Below the pieces are notes generated by a model that saw only the letters and a list, made by a program, of their open reading frames with translations, was not told the origin of the DNA and ran no database searches. 32,000 nt of DNA. It comes from Candidatus Syntropharchaeum caldarium. Its GTDB lineage: Archaea > Halobacteriota > Syntropharchaeia > Syntropharchaeales > Syntropharchaeaceae. Below are positions 1-28,129 of this stretch, piece after piece. Position 1 is the first letter of the stretch. Each line of letters starts with the position of its first letter. The position numbers were made by a program, and so were the translations under genes. Where the stretch lies: positions 120,001 through 152,000 of the forward strand of contig LYOS01000002.1 of the NCBI GenBank assembly GCA_001766815.1. Direction: 5' to 3'.

Positions 1-1231
<1,231 letters not shown>

Positions 1232-1308
1232 ATAATAAAAAAATAAAATAAAGATCAAACTGCTGATCGGATCGTCGATAAATTATTAGAGCCATTAAGG
1301 CTGGGACG

Positions 1309-1380
1309 GGGCTCGTAGATCAGTGGAAGATCGTCGCCTTTGCGAGGCGAAGGCCCTGGGTTCAAATCCCAGCGAGTCCA
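1309..1380 (+). tRNA. tRNA-Ala (anticodon TGC) in the 16S-23S spacer
   Basis: Hand-folded cloverleaf: acceptor GGGCTCG/CGAGTCC with the G3:U70 alanine identity pair, D stem GATC/GATC, anticodon stem TCGCC/GGCGA with loop TTTGCGA (TGC at 1341-1343), T arm CTGGG-TTCAAAT-CCCAG, discriminator A. CCA is not encoded. Confidence 0.95.
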
Positions 1381-1465
1381 TAGATGCACTCTTGCGCGTA
1401 AGCGTTTGAGGAAGTGTTGATAGCACGCGTGATGCGATGCTAAATGAAACGATCATAAGTTCCAA

Positions 1466-1495
1466 GATCTGGACGCTAACTGGATATAGTGAGGC
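1466..1495 (+). other. 5' strand of the 23S pre-rRNA processing stem (BHB-like motif)
   Basis: 1466-1473 GATCTGGA pairs with 4452-4459 TCCAGATC (8 bp). 1474-1476 CGC pairs with 4446-4448 GCG. 1480-1495 CTGGATATAGTGAGGC pairs with 4430-4445 GCTTTGCTATGTCCAG (16 bp including G-U pairs). This leaves 3-nt bulges TAA (1477-1479) and ATA (4449-4451) on opposite strands. Confidence 0.75.
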
Positions 1496-4429
<2,934 letters not shown>

Positions 4430-4459
4430 GCTTTGCTATGTCCAGGCGATATCCAGATC
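4430..4459 (+). other. 3' strand of the 23S pre-rRNA processing stem
   Basis: Complementary to 1466-1495 (pairs listed for that feature). Its outer helix reaches 4459 and so overlaps the stop codon (4458-4460) of the convergent methyltransferase gene. Confidence 0.75.
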
Positions 4460-12142: not shown

Positions 12143-12213
12143 TGCGGCAACCGGGATTTGAACCCGGGTTAGAGGCTTGGGAAGCCCCTGTCCTACCGCT
12201 AGACTATTGCCGC
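12143..12213 (-). tRNA. tRNA-Gly (anticodon CCC)
   Basis: Hand fold of the reverse complement: acceptor GCGGCAA/TTGCCGC, D arm GTCT-AGCGGTA-GGAC, anticodon arm GGGGC-TTCCCAA-GCCTC (CCC at 12179-12181), variable TAAC, T arm CCGGG-TTCAAAT-CCCGG, discriminator A. CCA is not encoded. Confidence 0.93.
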
Positions 12214-21502: not shown

Positions 21503-21831
21503 AGTTCACACTTCCTTTCTATTTTCCATATTATAGGTACATATTAAATAACCATACCTCCGCCAAACTTTCCCATAGATGCCTATTTCAAGTGAGAACC
21601 CCGGGAAAGAGTATTACCTTTTGACAAACGATTCTGATTTTTGAGAGGGTGAAATGGCTCAAGGTCTGTAGGACGTTTCCATGGGGAGAGAGTATGATAA
21701 GACCTGAAGCTATGATGCATCAGCAGAGGAAAATGGGCTTTAAAGATGGTTTGCTTCTGGTTTTTGGAGGGGTCAATTCTGGAATACACGGAGAAGGAAA
21801 GTTTTGAATACCTGAAGGATGTTTATCTTTC

Positions 21832-21990
21832 ATGGGTATGAAGGAATTTGAGATCGGACCTATAAGACCACCAGGTGAGGGGGGTAGTTTCTCTCTTCTC
21901 ATAAGAGCGACGAGGAACTGCCCGTGGAGCAGGTGCACGTTCTGCTATGGCACCCTGTACATATCCAGGATGCAGACTCGCTCATCATGA
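21832..21990 (+). pseudogene. 5' remnant (52 codons) of a radical-SAM protein gene, truncated at the cassette boundary
   Basis: Hand translation gives MGMKEFEIGPIRPPGEGGSFSLLIRATRNCPWSRCTFCYGTLYISRMQTRSS*. The IGPIRPP...SLLIRATRNC-x4-C-x2-C block matches my recollection of the N-terminus of a radical-SAM family. After about 21960 the frame runs antisense into the 155-aa gene and stops, and no continuation exists in the window. Confidence 0.55.
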
Positions 21991-22412
21991 AGACCCGGGA
22001 TCTGCGTAACGGTTCTTCTCCCCTTCTCCTCCACTACTTTAAACGCTAACCTTTCATTACCTACCCAGAGCGCAAATTCACAGTTAGGAGAGGCTGCAAC
22101 ATAGCTTTCAAGCTGTTCAATGCCTTCCTTTTTATCTGATGGCTTAACGTCTTCGCTCTTCACCTCGACGTTCATGTAAATGTTTTCCTGTGTGTGCTCC
22201 TCGTCTTCAGAAAAGATCGCAATATCTGCTCGCTTTTTCGCCGTTCCCATCTTGATAGGAAACTCCACGTCGATATCCCGTTTCTCATAGCCATACTCTT
22301 CGATCAAGCTTCTCGCTACATCCTGTCTCACCCTTTCCTCGGGTGTATCCTTTCTGAGCTTTCCTGTGATGAAACACTTTACTTTTCCTGGGGGGATTGG
22401 TTTATCGGGCAT
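21945..22412 (-). CDS. HsdR_N-like (type I restriction enzyme R-subunit N-terminal domain family) PD-(D/E)xK protein, stand-alone
   Basis: 155 aa with TPEERVRQDVARSLIEEYGY, RADIAIF...(17)...NVEVK (D63...E83-x-K85), IEQLESYV and ALWVGNERLAF, which is the HSDR_N pattern. It has its own RBS, GGAGG 8 nt upstream of the ATG. The last ~15 codons overlap the radical-SAM remnant on the other strand. Confidence 0.7.
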   Translation of the reverse strand: MPDKPIPPGKVKCFITGKLRKDTPEERVRQDVARSLIEEYGYEKRDIDVEFPIKMGTAKKRADIAIFSEDEEHTQENIYMNVEVKSEDVKPSDKKEGIEQLESYVAASPNCEFALWVGNERLAFKVVEEKGRRTVTQIPGLHDERVCILDMYRVP

Positions 22413-22474
22413 TTATTTAGCCTCCAGTTGAGGATATGAATGGTGTTGATATGGAAAATGCACGCGAGAGAATA

Positions 22475-24388
22475 TTACTGTGATTCATCGTCTCCCTCCC
22501 TTGAACTTCCATCGATGGTTAAGTAACAATATGCACCCTTCTCCACTTGTACTATGTCAGGACTTTCACTTGTCTTAAAATTTAATTTTTTCAACGTTTC
22601 TTTTAATTGCCTTTCAGAATCACTGTGCGCTCTTTGTCTTTGATCTTTAGCTTCCACCAGTAGAACGCCTAGACTCCCATTTTTAAACCCTAAACCAAAC
22701 CCATCAATATCGGTCAAATGATTTCGTTTGTCATCGTACACCAATATCGATGATAAAGATAGTAACAATTCTGAACGATGACTTAGATTGCCAAGGGAGT
22801 CTTGTAGTGTTTTAAGCTCGTGGGATCTCGAATTGAAAGAATTTAAATCTTTACATATCTTTTTAATTATCTTTGCAGCATTTTTTGAGCCTTTAACTGC
22901 CAACATAAATATCGCAAACAGATTTTCATCTTTAAGCTCAAAAGATAGTTCTTCCTCGGTGATATATCCAAGGATGGAAAGCAATAATTCTTGATATGGT
23001 TTTTGAAACACGTAATCAATAAAAACCTCGGTTTCGGGCACATCATGAACTTCATTTTTTATTTTATCATTTAAATTAATCAAATCTTTCAAAAAATATC
23101 CGAGTATTTCTACATTTTTCTGTATTTGAGATTGCGGATAAAAGGATAATGTAATTGCTATATGTTTCGAGGTGGGCGCTGCTTGTAATGCCAACTGACA
23201 AGAGGTTGTGCCATATTTTTTATTCCATTTTTCTTCGATTTCATACGATAAATTTTTCTTGAATGCATTAGTGAGGAGGGGAAACGGAAGTATTTCAAAC
23301 AAAACATGGATATTAAAAGCCTTCTTCCAATCCTTAGATTGAGGTTGAAAGTCATTATAATCTTTCATTAAGTATCTCTGAAGTCCTGTTATTTTGGTAA
23401 GCTCCTTATCTTTTTTCTCCTTACCAATCAATTGTTCGATTCGTTTTGTATGAAACCCTAACTCCCTCATGGACTTATCGGAATGGTACATATTAATCGA
23501 AAGAAGATCCTCTAAAGAATCAAGTGTTCTGATGATTGGGGTATCATATTCCTTAAATAGGGGTACAATGTGGTCTGGAAAATTTAGGAATATCGTCGAG
23601 AGGTTAAAATCAATTGGAACAGGACCATACTGGGAATCTAAAAAAAGATAAGAAACCTGCCTTATTCTATGAAAAAGATTTTTAAGATTTCTTTGTTTTT
23701 CTTCGTGTTCTTCTGAATCTATAATATAAAAATTTAGCACTTCTTGTAGAAAATCAACAAAATTAGGGATTTTTGAACTATACCTGCGGTATCGCCCAAG
23801 ATGAAAGTAAATGAGAATTTTGTGAAAATTGTATATATCTTCGTTTTCGAGGATTTCTTTGAAATATTCTCTTTGTTTTCTCGCTGGCAATCCTTTTGTG
23901 ATAATCGCTCTCAAATCACTGTGCTTTTGACAATATCTCAAGAGTGCTCTTTCAGTTGCAAATGTACCTGGTAAATGTCCCGCGTTAAATAAAAGTATCC
24001 ATATCTGCAAAATTTCTGCACCAGAAATTTCTTTGCCTAAAATATTAATATTTGAATTTAAACCAAAAAGCCCCTTTACGCTCTTTTCACTCCTTAATTT
24101 ATAGATCAGCTCCAATTGGAGCATCACGTATTCCCAACGCGAGTGGTGTGCGCCTTCATATACACTCCTAATTACCCCTAATTGATCGATTTCCCTCATG
24201 CGATCAATATGGTCATAATTATCAAGAAGATTATAAGTTTCTGTAGCGAGAGGATAAAGTCGAGCAGAGATCTTCCCCAACTGTGGTACGTGGTATTCGA
24301 GGATTTTATTAGTTTCTTCACTCATTTTTTTTACACAGCAAACATTTTTCCAATATCCAAGAGATTTATATCTTAATAATACTATCAT
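22475..24388 (-). CDS. Uncharacterised 637-aa protein: degenerate dGTPase/SAMHD1-like HD region (about res 25-300) plus C-terminal PD-(D/E)xK nuclease-like motif
   Basis: Uninterrupted 1.9-kb ORF whose ATG overlaps the HNH stop (ATGA, 24385-24388). IDRMREIDQLGVIRSVYEGAHHSRWEY and ILLFNAGHLPGTFATE resemble HD-hydrolase motifs with HD replaced by FN. The C-terminus reads TDIDGFGLGFKNGSLGVLLVEAKDQ. The gene is strongly AT-rich compared with its neighbours. Confidence refers to it being a real gene; the function is unknown. Confidence 0.85.
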   Translation of the reverse strand: MIVLLRYKSLGYWKNVCCVKKMSEETNKILEYHVPQLGKISARLYPLATETYNLLDNYDHIDRMREIDQLGVIRSVYEGAHHSRWEYVMLQLELIYKLRSEKSVKGLFGLNSNINILGKEISGAEILQIWILLFNAGHLPGTFATERALLRYCQKHSDLRAIITKGLPARKQREYFKEILENEDIYNFHKILIYFHLGRYRRYSSKIPNFVDFLQEVLNFYIIDSEEHEEKQRNLKNLFHRIRQVSYLFLDSQYGPVPIDFNLSTIFLNFPDHIVPLFKEYDTPIIRTLDSLEDLLSINMYHSDKSMRELGFHTKRIEQLIGKEKKDKELTKITGLQRYLMKDYNDFQPQSKDWKKAFNIHVLFEILPFPLLTNAFKKNLSYEIEEKWNKKYGTTSCQLALQAAPTSKHIAITLSFYPQSQIQKNVEILGYFLKDLINLNDKIKNEVHDVPETEVFIDYVFQKPYQELLLSILGYITEEELSFELKDENLFAIFMLAVKGSKNAAKIIKKICKDLNSFNSRSHELKTLQDSLGNLSHRSELLLSLSSILVYDDKRNHLTDIDGFGLGFKNGSLGVLLVEAKDQRQRAHSDSERQLKETLKKLNFKTSESPDIVQVEKGAYCYLTIDGSSREGDDESQ

Positions 24389-24636
24389 TCGTCTCTGACT
24401 TTTTGCACTTTCTTTGCTATATCGTTCCTCTTACCGCGATTGTAGTTCTTGATCCTATTCCACCTATAATGATCGCTTCTCTTTAACCAGCGAAGCCATT
24501 CCATAAGTGGTTTATCTCCTTTACTTCTGTTACATGCTCGACACGCAGGAATAGTTCTAACACCTCCTTTTGATGCCGCTCTGATGTGCTCATTCTCAAG
24601 GGTTCTGCTACTTCCACAATACATACATTTTTCCAT
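24385..24636 (-). CDS. Small HNH endonuclease (83 aa, zinc-finger type)
   Basis: MEKCMYCGSSRTLENEHIRAASKGGVRTIPACRACNRSKGDKPL contains CxxC...(E)H...GG...CxxCNxxKG, the HNH beta-beta-alpha-Me pattern. GAGGTG lies 5 nt upstream of the ATG. The start is 40 nt downstream of the nrdD stop. Confidence 0.85.
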   Translation of the reverse strand: MEKCMYCGSSRTLENEHIRAASKGGVRTIPACRACNRSKGDKPLMEWLRWLKRSDHYRWNRIKNYNRGKRNDIAKKVQKVRDE

Positions 24637-24676: not shown

Positions 24677-26938
24677 TCACCCAACCTCCCCCACCTTATA
24701 CCTCCTCCGATCCTTCAACTCCTGCTTCTTCCCTGCGTTCCACCCACTTACAGCCTGGAGATACCCTGTAACCCTCGATAGGTGCTCGACATTCGTTGAT
24801 CCACAGTTCGGGCATTTATCGCGCAAACCCCCTGCCATGTTGTAGCCATCAAGACAGAGCGTCATATCACGGGTGAATGCAAAGTATCCGGTCTGTGTGT
24901 TCTTTGCAATCCTAAGCGCAAGATCTTTCAGGCCATGGGGGTCGATCGCACTCTCGCCCATGAAAATGTGAAGAATATTTCCCCCATCAACGATTGGGAA
25001 AAAGATATGCTCGATCTTTATCCGTTCAATCAGCGATACATCAGCAGCAGGTGGCAGATGTGTTCCATTTGTGTAGTAGATCGGTAGATCCCGCGTCTCA
25101 TCGATATGCTTCAAGGCTTCTTCTAAGTTTCCCTTTACAACCGCCTCAGCGCACGGTCTGTATTTATCATCGAGTATATCTGCAACCGCAAACCGCTGGC
25201 AGGTCGTCTCTGCAGGGGTCCGTGCAAGCGAGATCGTCATGTTATGCTTCTCTGATAGCTCTCTTGCATAGAGTTCCATCTCGGTCATCATCCTGACAGC
25301 AACTTTAAGCGCATCCCTTGATTCATGCATCTGATTCCCTGTGTGGTGCTCAACCATCTCATTTATCCCAACAACACCGATGATATAGACAAGATCATCT
25401 AAATAGACCGCAACATCTCCCTTTTCACCTGTTATCGGATCGCGGGGGCGTTGTGTTGCAAAGGGCATTCGATTGTTCTCGATAATTATATCCATCCATC
25501 TCCGCTTGATCTTCAATACCTCAACAGCATGATCCATCAGCTTTTTGAGTTCTGTGATAAGCCGCTCATCGTCGTGATCTGCCCGGTATGCAGCCCTTGG
25601 ACAGTTCAGGGACACAACCTGCCAGCCGCCCATCGAGAAGTGTTTTCCACCCCTGAAGTACATCTTGTTATCGAACTCCGCATCGTCCTCTGGGTTGGAT
25701 GCAAACTGGTATGCACAGCACTGGTAACAGGATACACCCTCTCCGCTTCCCCTGTACTCGGGGAGCTGATTATCGAAGTATGGCGATCCGTACTTTGCTG
25801 CAAGCTCAAAGGCAAGATCATAAAGCTCCTCGTAGGTTGGAAGCTCGGGGTGAGTTCTGTTGTATTCTTTTATCTCATCGCTCTCCTCTAAAAAATCACG
25901 CTCAATCGATATCTCTGGCTTCGGGAAGTTGAACGGCTTTCCAAAATAGTCACCATCGAGCATCACCTCCATCAGCGCCTTGAAGCCAAGCCTCACCTCA
26001 CGCTCAAACTCGCCATATCTCCGATCTGTCACCATCCCTCTGTAAACTGCTGGCTTATCTCTCCAGATTCTTGGCACGCCGGGGCTGAGCTGTACCGACG
26101 AGAATACGATCTGTCCGCCCCGTGCGACCATCATCTGCGTCATCTCATAGATGAACATCTGCATGAGCTGTTTGATCTCTTTGTACTCAAGCCCCTCAAG
26201 ATACGGTGCAAGAAATGTTAAAAAATTGTAGAAGCCCTGACCACCCGCAAAGTTTGTCTGTGCACTCCCGAGCGCCTTTACAGCATGAAGTACAGCAACC
26301 TCTGCTTTTTGAGCAGGGCCTGCAACCGAAGCCCGTGTGCCGTTGCCATCGGGCATCAGCCCATAGTAGAAGAAGTATCTCAGATCCCAGTCCTGACAGA
26401 ACGCCCGTGTGCCAAAGTACTCAAGGTCATGGATATGAATATCGCCTTTCAGATGAAGATCTGCGATATGGGGTGGAAGAAGGAGGAGATATTGTTCCTT
26501 CGAGATCTTGTCTGCTTTCTTCTTGTGTGAAGTCTCGGCGTTGCCCTGCAGGTTGGCATTCTCCTTTGCCTCAAAGCCAGTCCCGACATCGATTAAGTGT
26601 GCATCAAAGACCGGGGTTCCGACACGGGTTGAGATGTTTCGCCATTCCGGGTGATCCTCTTCAAGGAGCGTGACATTTGTGATCTCCCGTATCAGTGCAC
26701 CTGCCAGCGTCTTCAGGTTCATCCGTCTGATCCGAGTCTCAACCTTCTTTGCGATATCTTTTGCAAGTTCTTCCGTGATAGGGGGGATGTTATAAAATTC
26801 ACGGCTGAGCTTGGTTTCTTTCAGAAGCTGTCTCACAATTGCACGCCTGTCCCATGAGAGGATGTGCCCATCTGAAGTCCTGACCTTGGGCATCTGGGGC
26901 ATCCTTGTGCCATCAAGTGTCGTCTGGATAAGCCTCAC
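24677..26938 (-). CDS. nrdD: Anaerobic (class III) ribonucleoside-triphosphate reductase
   Basis: 753 aa with an N-terminal ATP-cone-like segment, C-terminal Zn site CPNCGS and glycyl-radical motif SRVTGYLQAV. The GTG start overlaps the upstream stop (GTGA). Confidence 0.95.
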   Translation of the reverse strand: MRLIQTTLDGTRMPQMPKVRTSDGHILSWDRRAIVRQLLKETKLSREFYNIPPITEELAKDIAKKVETRIRRMNLKTLAGALIREITNVTLLEEDHPEWRNISTRVGTPVFDAHLIDVGTGFEAKENANLQGNAETSHKKKADKISKEQYLLLLPPHIADLHLKGDIHIHDLEYFGTRAFCQDWDLRYFFYYGLMPDGNGTRASVAGPAQKAEVAVLHAVKALGSAQTNFAGGQGFYNFLTFLAPYLEGLEYKEIKQLMQMFIYEMTQMMVARGGQIVFSSVQLSPGVPRIWRDKPAVYRGMVTDRRYGEFEREVRLGFKALMEVMLDGDYFGKPFNFPKPEISIERDFLEESDEIKEYNRTHPELPTYEELYDLAFELAAKYGSPYFDNQLPEYRGSGEGVSCYQCCAYQFASNPEDDAEFDNKMYFRGGKHFSMGGWQVVSLNCPRAAYRADHDDERLITELKKLMDHAVEVLKIKRRWMDIIIENNRMPFATQRPRDPITGEKGDVAVYLDDLVYIIGVVGINEMVEHHTGNQMHESRDALKVAVRMMTEMELYARELSEKHNMTISLARTPAETTCQRFAVADILDDKYRPCAEAVVKGNLEEALKHIDETRDLPIYYTNGTHLPPAADVSLIERIKIEHIFFPIVDGGNILHIFMGESAIDPHGLKDLALRIAKNTQTGYFAFTRDMTLCLDGYNMAGGLRDKCPNCGSTNVEHLSRVTGYLQAVSGWNAGKKQELKDRRRYKVGEVG

Positions 26939-27204
26939 AGGATCCCTCCGTTCAAATGCTTCTTTACGAGATCTATATCAACCCCATCCTCCTTGACGAG
27001 TTCTGATGAGGTCAGGAATATGTCATCCCCGATCTGAAGCACGGGTGCAGAGAGTGCGAAAATCCCGTTCATCCGCAGTTCTGTCATCGCATCTGCTGTC
27101 ATCATCTCAACCTCTTCGTACTCAATTCCTTCTGCTGCAAGCGCCTGTTTCAGACGCTCACAACCAGGGCATGTAGTCATAGAATATACCCTCACACGTG
27201 TCAC
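26935..27204 (-). CDS. Glutaredoxin/NrdH-like thioredoxin-fold protein
   Basis: VRVYSMTTCPGCERLKQAL carries a CPGC redox motif after beta1. Start chosen at GTG 27204, 6 nt after GGAGGT (27211-27216); the track ATG at 27249 adds 15 non-typical residues. It is translationally coupled to nrdD. Confidence 0.8.
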   Translation of the reverse strand: MTRVRVYSMTTCPGCERLKQALAAEGIEYEEVEMMTADAMTELRMNGIFALSAPVLQIGDDIFLTSSELVKEDGVDIDLVKKHLNGGIL

Positions 27205-27415
27205 AACACAACCTCCTTCTCGTTGTATTCTGCGTCGTATGCATCGCATATACGCAATTATAGCTGTAAAAAAGCACTATAAAACAATTTTTCAGATCAC
27301 ATCTGATAACGAACCTTTTCTTTTATTATCGTGTTTGTATTCAAATTTAGTAAAATACAGTATCCTGATATATCCCACACCGTAGTTTCATATATGCTCA
27401 AAACAAAGTTTCGAT

Positions 27416-28129
27416 ATGCGAATAACAGGTATTGAAAAGGTTAAATCTAAGGATGGCAGAAAAAGTGTTCGTATCAAGTTCTTTGGATGTAATCTCAGGT
27501 GTCCGTACTGCTTCCACATAACCGAGAAGCAGAAGCAGGAAAAGCTGAGCGTGGAGGAGATTCTTTCCTCAATCAGAGCGTTCTTTGGCGAAGAAGTGGG
27601 ACGGATAACGCTTGGCGGGGCAGAACCAACGATCCAGAAAGATCTGATCGAGCTTGTAAGATCACTTAAAGAAGAAGGGCACACAATCACGCTTAAAACC
27701 GATGGATTCAGGCCAGATGTGCTTGAAGAGCTTCTCGATTATGTGGATCGATTTGTGATCGAGATAAAGGCGCCGCTTGATGATATCGATGCAAATGCAG
27801 CGTTAACTGGCTTATCCCGTGAGCGAGCATCGGTTTATGTTGAGAAGCTAAGGGAGACACTTGATCTTCTGAGAAAGGAACAGAAGAAGTTCAGGGCTTG
27901 GATCAGGGTTATACCTGAGTATGTGAACATTGATACGATTCGCGCGATAGGAGAGGATATCAGGGGTGCAGATGATGCGATGCTGTACCAGTTTTTGAGT
28001 GATCCCACCTATGATATACCGTTTGAAGGATACACAACACCTGTACCACCAAGAGAGGAGATAGATCGGCTTGCAGAGATCCTGCTTGAGTACGTTCCCC
28101 GAATTGAGATAAAAAGTGCTCAAGAATAG
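27416..28129 (+). CDS. nrdG: Anaerobic ribonucleotide reductase activating enzyme (radical SAM)
   Basis: FFGCNLRCPYCFH (CxxxCxxC) lies near the N-terminus, followed by LGGAEPT. The gene is divergent from the grx-like/nrdD pair. Confidence 0.85.
   Translation: MRITGIEKVKSKDGRKSVRIKFFGCNLRCPYCFHITEKQKQEKLSVEEILSSIRAFFGEEVGRITLGGAEPTIQKDLIELVRSLKEEGHTITLKTDGFRPDVLEELLDYVDRFVIEIKAPLDDIDANAALTGLSRERASVYVEKLRETLDLLRKEQKKFRAWIRVIPEYVNIDTIRAIGEDIRGADDAMLYQFLSDPTYDIPFEGYTTPVPPREEIDRLAEILLEYVPRIEIKSAQE

Follow-up and report, generated by a model that had tools for sequence, protein, structure and literature searches.

A SAMHD1-like protein family of archaea and bacteria that has lost its metal site and carries a predicted C-terminal PD-(D/E)xK nuclease domain

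SAMHD1-type deoxynucleoside triphosphate (dNTP) triphosphohydrolases, or dNTPases, are antiviral effectors whose conservation extends from bacteria to humans; their mode of action is the destruction of dNTPs. Shedu and the modification-dependent restriction enzymes, MspJI for example, combine a reader domain with a PD-(D/E)xK nuclease. Clover CloA is a deoxyguanosine triphosphatase (dGTPase) activated by deoxythymidine triphosphate (dTTP), i.e. dNTP levels can be read by SAMHD1-like folds (PMC12265719). GajA, of the Gabija system, is a nuclease suppressed by nucleoside triphosphates (NTPs) and dNTPs and is proposed to fire when infection changes these pools (PMC8136825). Here we analyze SCAL_000689, a gene of Candidatus Syntrophoarchaeum caldarius located in a window of 32,000 nucleotides (nt) of contig LYOS01000002.1 (positions 120,001 to 152,000). 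Its product joins a SAMHD1-like module devoid of the metal site to a C-terminal domain that is quite probably a PD-(D/E)xK nuclease. An earlier note, made from the sequence of this window alone, had proposed such a fusion of a dismantled dNTPase with a nuclease motif.

The gene is an uninterrupted open reading frame (ORF) of 637 codons on the minus strand. The sequence entry corresponding to its translation (OFV68049.1, UniProt A0A1F2P9I5) bears the source label "hypothetical protein SCAL_000689". The ORF and its two modules are the following:

22475..24388, minus strand: full ORF SCAL_000689, 637 amino acids (aa) (ORF listing of the window, 100% identity to OFV68049.1)
22889..24313, minus strand: residues ~26-500, SAMHD1/EF1143-like dNTPase fold (HD core and C-terminal lobe) without metal site (AlphaFold2 (AF2), Foldseek, hhalign)
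22499..22888, minus strand: residues ~501-630, C-terminal domain, α-α-β-β-β-β-β-α-β-β, putative PD-(D/E)xK nuclease effector (domain model, weak clan matches)

Residues ~26-500 descend from a dNTP triphosphohydrolase of the SAMHD1/EF1143 type. A profile of 49 family sequences matched PDB entry 9mr6 (SAMHD1 of Rhizophagus irregularis) over motif I with an E-value of 7.9e-6 in hmmsearch, and more weakly the EF1143 structures 2hek and 2o6i. When human SAMHD1 alone or a vertebrate-only profile was used in hhalign, only motif I aligned; forced further, these queries misaligned motif II (CHDLGH against GLFGLNS) and were set aside. We therefore collected a diverse reference set, 43 SAMHD1-like genes fetched from viral contigs. 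The resulting 51-sequence profile aligned with the 173-sequence profile of the family over 225 columns (96.5%, E 7.9e-10), query 58-309 facing SAMHD1 138-382. The three alignments to SAMHD1 which the earlier note had drawn by hand are reproduced there, and such resemblance exceeds chance by far; alignments restricted to sub-regions gave the same pairing at P 0.1-0.2.

The AF2 model of the full protein, computed from the alignment, has a predicted local distance difference test score (pLDDT) of 90.2 and a predicted template modelling score (pTM) of 0.88. Its best PDB match by Foldseek is again 9mr6 (E 2.2e-4, probability 1.0, target TM-score (TMt) 0.54, 506 columns), followed by 4lrl (E 7.4e-4) and 3irh (E 1.0e-3), both of the EF1143 dNTPase, and all PDB matches with E < 0.01 are SAMHD1 or EF1143. 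Kinship with the HD superfamily, specifically with the SAMHD1/EF1143 type, is thus found by profile-sequence, profile-profile and fold searches. Pfam PF01966 (HD) matched neither the window protein nor any of 49 members even at E-values up to 10, and phmmer of the window protein against PDB returned nothing. The earlier note had expected PF01966/COG1078-like profile matches: the SAMHD1 alignment at 58-309 was obtained, the Pfam HD match was not. Its descent places the protein in the SAMHD1/EF1143 branch of the HD superfamily. It should nevertheless not be filed as an HD phosphohydrolase, because the H…HD…D residues that define this group are lacking.

In SAMHD1 the metal is bound by H167, H206, D207 and D311, L150 is a steric gate that excludes nucleotides carrying a 2'-OH, the 3'-OH is hydrogen-bonded by Q149 and D319, and L150 and Y374 shape a tight pocket (PMC5207538). 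In our control set of SAMHD1-like sequences there is little or no variation at H167, H206, D207, H215, H233, D311, K312, Y315, D319, R366 and Y374. The corresponding segments of the window protein are:

24104..24208, minus strand: motif I, residues 61-95, IDRMREIDQLGVIRSVYEGAHHSRWEYV…; Q69, L70 and R84 kept, Y87 in place of H167 (alignments, counts)
23948..24022, minus strand: motif II, residues 123-147, AEILQIWILLFNAGHLPGTFATER; F134/N135 in place of the HD dyad, H138 equivalent to H210, F143 in place of H215 (hhalign)
23606..23671, minus strand: distal motif, residues 240-261, HRIRQVSYLFLDSQYGPVPIDF; R243 in place of D311, Y247 equivalent to Y315, D251 to D319 (hhalign)
23483..23512, minus strand: residues 293-302; Y301 equivalent to SAMHD1 Y374, pocket wall (hhalign)

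Residues were counted in the 173 full-length members of the family, with SAMHD1 numbering transferred through hhalign:

H167 (metal), replaced by Y87: Tyr 171/173
H206 (metal), replaced by F134: Leu 70, Phe 36, Thr 24, Ser 23, His 0/173
D207 (metal), replaced by N135: Asn 156/173
D311 (metal), replaced by R243: Arg 172/173
H215 (catalytic), replaced by F143: Phe 151/173
H233 (catalytic), H156 in the window protein: not conserved, Asn, Asp or Ser in most members
Q149, Q69: Gln 115, His 54 of 173
L150, L70: 171/173
R164, R84: 163/173
H210, H138: 167/173
Y315, Y247: Tyr 121, Phe 35 of 173
D319, D251: 170/173
Y374, Y301: 169/173

All four metal ligands and the catalytic H215 are replaced family-wide. 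SAMHD1 R366 and H370 also have no retained equivalents. Other positions are conserved, H82 (160/173) and E86 (156/173), and Lys or Arg is frequent at 244. An intact HD dyad occurs in none of the 173 members, Asp is never among the residues listed at position 135, and no conserved His-Asp pair is found anywhere in the family. Because no member has the dyad, its loss reads as an old and selected trait of the family and not as decay; decay of this single copy was ruled out, the substitutions being family-wide. As judged from the alignments, the residues of the pocket that recognize deoxyribose are retained and the chemistry is discarded, with an invariant cationic Arg at the position of a metal-binding Asp. 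We infer that the N-terminal module no longer hydrolyses dNTPs.

Most of what the earlier note had read in this module holds: the fold is retained while the metal site is gone, the histidine of its "EH" motif is indeed a Tyr (Y87 for H167), and the homologues speak against the decay of this copy, which the note had named as a possible refutation. Some readings need amendment. In the "FN" that it saw instead of the HD dyad, N135 is conserved and F134 is not (Leu, Phe, Thr or Ser). H81/H82, taken for the kept first His, align to SAMHD1 S161/H162, which are not metal ligands. Among the distal Asp positions said to be lost, D311 is replaced by R243, and D319 is kept as D251. The peptides it quoted lie at residues 61-95, 240-261 and T559-Q583 as it had placed them; a further one ends at 146 (130-146) instead of 147.

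The best conserved residues of the entire sequence lie in the C-terminal domain, at two sites:

22817..22819, minus strand: E524, in the opening turn of helix 520-534, candidate for the α1 acidic residue of a nuclease site (169/173, DSSP)
22646..22711, minus strand: D560-x-D562-G563 … E579-A-K581, catalytic-type D…ExK hairpin, TDIDGFGLGFKNGSLGVLLVEAK (conservation counts)

E524 and E579 are each found in 169 of the 173 members, Asp or Glu at 560 in 171, D562 in 172, G563 in 159 and K581 in 171. The domain modelled in isolation has a pLDDT of 92.8. In the full-length and domain models DSSP assigns a helix at 520-534, strands at 557-561 and 563-569 with D562 between them, a strand at 572-580 in which E579 is near the end and is followed by K581, a helix at 587-602 and a strand at 612-615. 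The predicted order of helices and strands fits the α-β-β-β-α-β core of a PD-(D/E)xK site, in which the Asp opens β2 and ExK closes β3.

We scanned 41 diverse C-terminal fragments singly against Pfam and PADLOC. The sub-threshold matches were concentrated in PD-(D/E)xK families. With Pfam they were to HamA (two members, E 0.0025 and 0.058), Card1_endonuc (two members, E 0.0043), NERD, SduA_C, YhcG_C (E 0.04) and PDDEXK_9 (E 0.086). With PADLOC they were to HamA1 (E 3.6e-4), REase_II (1.2e-3) and CARF_PDDEXK. Four fragments scanned separately matched HamA (two fragments) and YhcG_C with PDDEXK_9 in or across the D…ExK segment; the Card1_endonuc match covers the ExK and the next helix only. An hhalign comparison of the domain with a neighbouring HSDR_N_2 protein (see below) gave nothing. 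Given the motif, the order of the elements and the convergence of the sub-threshold matches, this domain is, in our judgement, likely to be a PD-(D/E)xK nuclease. The D…ExK arrangement pointed out by the earlier note is thus near-invariant and sits in a suitable order of elements; a nuclease match by Foldseek or in PDB did not appear.

The family is large. An exhaustive profile search over 1.84 billion representatives gave 864 clusters (50% identity) at E <= 1e-3, of which 461 reach E <= 1e-30. Almost every member is ~600 aa long and aligned end to end by the profile; the two-part architecture is therefore fixed in the family. A word-indexed search gave 57 relatives, none with Pfam domains, and neither the window protein nor 49 aligned homologues matched a family model of Pfam, NCBIfam, PADLOC or PHROGs. 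Every source name met for members is "hypothetical" or "uncharacterized", that of a RefSeq copy on a Peribacillus plasmid included. We found no description of a fusion of a dead HD or SAMHD1-like module with a nuclease in the literature searched or in these four hidden Markov model libraries, in line with the earlier note, which knew of none.

The taxonomic distribution is patchy. Archaeal members come from Methanobacterium, Methanobrevibacter, Methanosarcina and Syntrophoarchaeum (the order Methanobacteriales being included), bacterial members from Bacteroidota, Cloacimonadota, Desulfobulbaceae, Phycisphaerales, Fermentibacteria, several Myxococcota and the Peribacillus plasmid. The Myxococcota members, the most distant ones, keep R84, Y87, G-H138, TFATER, R243 and the nuclease motif. 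A phage origin of the gene was ruled out, since no match exists in 50,697 phage records. Two homologues carry N-terminal extensions of ~170-200 aa, residues 1-166 of P0073 (784 aa) and residues 1-200 of a Sorangium protein (L026 7428-9680, 750 aa). Neither extension has a Pfam match or a recognisable domain; they could be additional sensor or localisation modules.

We then examined ~18 independent loci. No neighbour gene is conserved across them, and the gene therefore works alone. Roughly half of the loci carry restriction-modification (R-M) or defence genes next to the family member or no more than a few kb away. These include a complete type I R-M system; GmrSD; Mrr with HsdR; BrxC/D with four TIR proteins, SLOG, a methyltransferase (MTase)/Vsr pair and Eco57I; RelA_SpoT with OLD-TOPRIM and an integrase; DUF87 with an MTase, HicAB and a transposase; and a DNA methylase with a primase and a Gp49/HTH module. 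In the window itself the flanking genes encode an HNH and an HSDR_N_2 protein (see below). In Methanobrevibacter curvatus (L012 1482-7989) the homologue is part of a compact defence islet: directly upstream are a PLD-nuclease/SNF2-helicase (1055 aa) and an Eco57I/TaqI_C type IIG-like methylase (1111 aa), and a Bro-N protein lies downstream. The plasmid copy is accompanied by an AAA ATPase and an integrase, and other copies are found amid housekeeping genes, one of them beside gyrB-dnaN-dnaA. The closest homologue (71% identity; L028 8001-9833, L029 1845-3677) separates a MoxR AAA ATPase gene from a DUF58/VWA gene. MoxR and DUF58 are normally operon partners, and their separation illustrates an insertion as a single-gene cassette. 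On a Methanobrevibacter-like contig (L032 13180-14943) a canonical gene with HD and HD_assoc (dGTPase-type) lies 3.4 kb downstream of a member, so that a single genome neighbourhood contains the fold in both its dead and its live form.

In the window itself the G+C content of the gene region is 0.31-0.39 against ~0.48 in both flanks, and this sharp trough (22450-24400) nearly coincides with the gene, which suggests a single gene acquired from a low-G+C donor. No convincing direct or inverted repeats were found as insertion scars around the gene. Low G+C, patchy taxonomy and the nature of the neighbours fit a mobile, defence-type single-gene cassette.

How does this protein compare with the described systems? 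With the SAMHD1/EF1143 dNTPases (COG1078) the family shares a homologous HD core, a similar fold over ~500 columns, the N-terminal β-hairpin, motif I (QLG…GA.H.R.E), the G-H-x-P loop and the equivalents of Q149, L150, R164, H210, Y315, D319 and Y374. It differs from them by the absence of the H…HD…D tetrad and of H215, by the non-conservation of H233 and by the extra C-terminal domain, so that its predicted output is cleavage of nucleic acid and not dNTP depletion. As for the bacterial defence dNTPases (dGTPase, Clover CloA), members are also found in defence contexts. The parallel with GajA is one of concept, a nuclease restrained by a nucleotide-binding domain that needs no hydrolysis (PMC8136825). 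The folds are nevertheless unrelated: GajA is made of ABC-ATPase-like and OLD/Toprim domains and works with GajB, whereas the family pairs a SAMHD1-like pseudo-enzyme with a PD-(D/E)xK-type domain and has no conserved partner.

HamA (Hachiman, DUF1837), Card1/Can2, Shedu SduA and Cap4 resemble the build predicted for the family, a regulatory N-terminal module followed by an effector of restriction endonuclease fold, and HamA, Card1_endonuc and SduA_C are the best, though weak and sub-threshold, matches of its C-terminal domain across D…ExK. The sensor, however, is not a CARF, SAVED or SduA N-terminal domain, and neither a helicase partner nor a nearby cyclic-oligonucleotide synthase is present. 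Type IV restriction enzymes are likewise single polypeptides without a methylase of their own, often located next to R-M, GmrSD or Mrr genes, but the readers known from them (SRA, EVE/PUA and others) have no relation to the HD fold. The protein would thus combine sensor and nuclease in one polypeptide, the sensor being of a new, pseudo-enzymatic kind. By analogy it may function most like GajA and the effectors that couple a sensor to a PD-(D/E)xK domain, with which it shares no sensor domain.

The reading that we favour, with a probability of about 0.5, is that of a stand-alone, horizontally mobile nuclease of anti-virus or anti-plasmid defence, gated by a non-catalytic deoxynucleotide receptor. 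The gating of a nuclease by a pseudo-enzyme that senses dNTPs or nucleic acid had been the hypothesis of the earlier note; the retained pocket residues lend it some support and make it more specific. The N-terminal module would bind, without hydrolysing it, a 2'-deoxynucleotide whose 3'-OH is free, in the simplest case a dNTP, and Arg243, together with R84, H138 and often K/R244, would neutralise the phosphates in place of the metal. Occupancy by the ligand may alter the conformation or the oligomeric state, in the manner of the allosteric nucleotides of SAMHD1, and this change would turn the C-terminal nuclease on or off. DNA cleavage would thereby be coupled to the way in which virus replication perturbs the deoxynucleotide pool. 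Control could operate by activation, upon a surge of the pool or the appearance of an unusual dNTP, or by a restraint released on depletion, as proposed for GajA. Each direction has a precedent, CloA with its activation by dTTP and GajA with its suppression by NTPs and dNTPs.

Several results weigh against this reading. For the nuclease, Foldseek of the isolated C-terminal domain against PDB and BFVD found no nuclease (best E 0.013; the matches are noise, e.g. kinase N-lobes and type III secretion system chaperones), a profile of this domain found nothing in PDB, and all matches to PD-(D/E)xK families stay below the curated thresholds. For the receptor, the Foldseek scores of the N-terminal module are modest (E ~1e-4 to 1e-3, query TM-score (TMq) 0.39, TM-scores moderate). 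Among the Myxococcota members there is variation at H82 and D251 and, for part of this branch, at N135; the pocket may therefore differ across the family. For the defence role, ordinary housekeeping genes surround the family member in about half of the loci. No system model of PADLOC-DB v2 was matched, the sole full-length match being DpdC at a chance-level E of 0.051. Finally, the family gave no match in the 50,697 phage genomes and was met on one plasmid only.

Part of the evidence can be read in another way, in which the pocket looks at DNA and not at a free nucleotide. Such a protein would act as a restriction nuclease of a type IV-like or DNA-end-sensing kind, and its SAMHD1-like module would be a target-recognition domain that reads a flipped-out (modified) base, or the 3'-terminal deoxynucleotide of DNA with its free 3'-OH, and that places the nuclease on foreign DNA. 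The kept residues are indeed those that in SAMHD1 contact the deoxyribose and the 3'-OH, not the metal-bound triphosphate, and the frequent R-M, GmrSD or Mrr neighbours are those of DNA-modification conflict loci. Moreover no partner gene is present to produce a signal, and a reader linked to a PD-(D/E)xK domain in one polypeptide is the usual build of such enzymes. But the invariant Arg gained at D311, the retention of R84 and H138 and the Lys or Arg at 244 point to several phosphates, i.e. to a free triphosphate, and the library scans recognised no DNA-binding domain. We regard this explanation as unlikely, although it is the one among the alternatives that we take most seriously.

It is somewhat less likely still that the dead dNTPase only provides an oligomerisation scaffold, by dimers or tetramers of the SAMHD1 type, for a nuclease that is constitutive or otherwise regulated, e.g. 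an orphan restriction or repair nuclease, the "pocket" being structural. PD-(D/E)xK enzymes usually require dimerisation, many of the conserved positions are hydrophobic or Gly (L70, G71, L133, G137, L139), H82, N135 and D251 are variable in distant members, and housekeeping genes flank about half of the copies. Against a scaffold, the polar residues conserved above 95% (R84, Y87, H138, T142, R243, D251, Y301) coincide one-for-one with active-site positions of SAMHD1. An unguarded constitutive nuclease without cognate methylase would be toxic, and low G+C and patchy distribution speak against a core repair role. The N-terminal domain could lastly still be an enzyme with a remodelled centre, e.g. 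H82/E86/H138/D251 with another metal or none, in a dual-activity effector whose second substrate would be nucleotides or nucleic acid. HD-superfamily members with variant metal sites exist, and these four potential ligands are conserved (160, 156, 167 and 170 of 173). Yet the four canonical ligands and H215 are replaced, H233 is not conserved, a cationic Arg occupies D311, and in the Myxococcota branch H82, D251 and partly N135 are lost while the nuclease motif persists. We regard a surviving catalytic activity as improbable.

Returning to the gated nuclease, a broader claim can be formulated, namely that the family is an unrecognised, widespread class of one-gene immune nucleases of archaea and bacteria in which a pseudo-SAMHD1 receptor, with an Arg for the metal and with the 2'-H gate and the 3'-OH contacts kept, licenses a PD-(D/E)xK nuclease. 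We advance it tentatively, with more doubt than confidence. If true, it would be a second evolutionary use of the SAMHD1 fold, as a ligand receptor that drives a nuclease without catalysis, and a new type of sensor in prokaryotic immunity. This first pseudo-SAMHD1 sensor would couple DNA cleavage directly to the condition of the dNTP pool or to unusual dNTPs of viruses. The system would count among the few candidates that have many members in archaea, methanogens and an alkane-oxidising archaeon among them, and at least 864 clusters (50% identity) would leave the "hypothetical" bin. It would also offer a defined pocket for the identification of the ligand (L70, Q69, D251, Y301, R84, R243) and a compact, possibly nucleotide-switchable nuclease for tool development.

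The first 21 residues of the 637-aa ORF have no counterpart in the homologues, which start at the equivalent of M22, and residues 1-25 are unstructured in the AF2 model (pLDDT < 50). For these two reasons the true start of SCAL_000689 is probably M22 (ATG at 24325), giving a product of 616 aa. A TATA-like sequence lies upstream of this ATG:

24364..24370, minus strand: "tataaat", ~42 nt upstream of the M22 ATG (read from sequence)

It is a candidate archaeal promoter element, from which an independent transcript might start.

The genes surrounding SCAL_000689 in the window are:

21945-22412, minus strand: 155-aa protein with an HSDR_N_2 (PD-(D/E)xK-like) domain only (NCBIfam MAD2 E 1.4e-23, positions 4-138 of 654)
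24385-24636, minus strand: stand-alone HNH endonuclease, 83 aa (Pfam HNH_5 E 2.2e-7; weak similarity to the HNH region of IscB)
24677-28129, both strands: anaerobic ribonucleotide reductase cluster, made of the next three ORFs
24677-26938, minus strand: NrdD, 753 aa, read from translation alone
26935-27249, minus strand: NrdH-like glutaredoxin
27416-28129, plus strand: radical-SAM activase

A conserved operon with the HNH or the HSDR_N_2 neighbour was ruled out, as neither recurs at the other loci examined. The HNH gene lies immediately downstream of nrdD. Its stop codon TGA shares bases with the ATG at the head of the 637-aa ORF (ATGA), an overlap that is probably incidental given the M22 start. 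Not being recurrent beside any homologue examined, the HNH gene is probably a small mobile or defence gene in its own right. The HSDR_N_2 protein resembles the N-terminus of MAD2 and of type I/II methyltransferases and is a domain standing by itself or else what remains of a longer R-M gene; no coding sequence is recognisable in the 440 nt downstream of it (21503-21944). The group formed by the HNH, 637-aa and HSDR_N_2 genes is directly downstream of nrdD, and the position of a protein with a dNTP pocket beside genes of dNTP synthesis is probably a coincidence. Elsewhere in the window two other features were located:

1-4431: archaeal rRNA operon, with the 16S gene cut at the window start, tRNA-Ala(TGC) at 1309-1380 and 23S at 1496-4431
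12143-12213, minus strand: tRNA-Gly(CCC)

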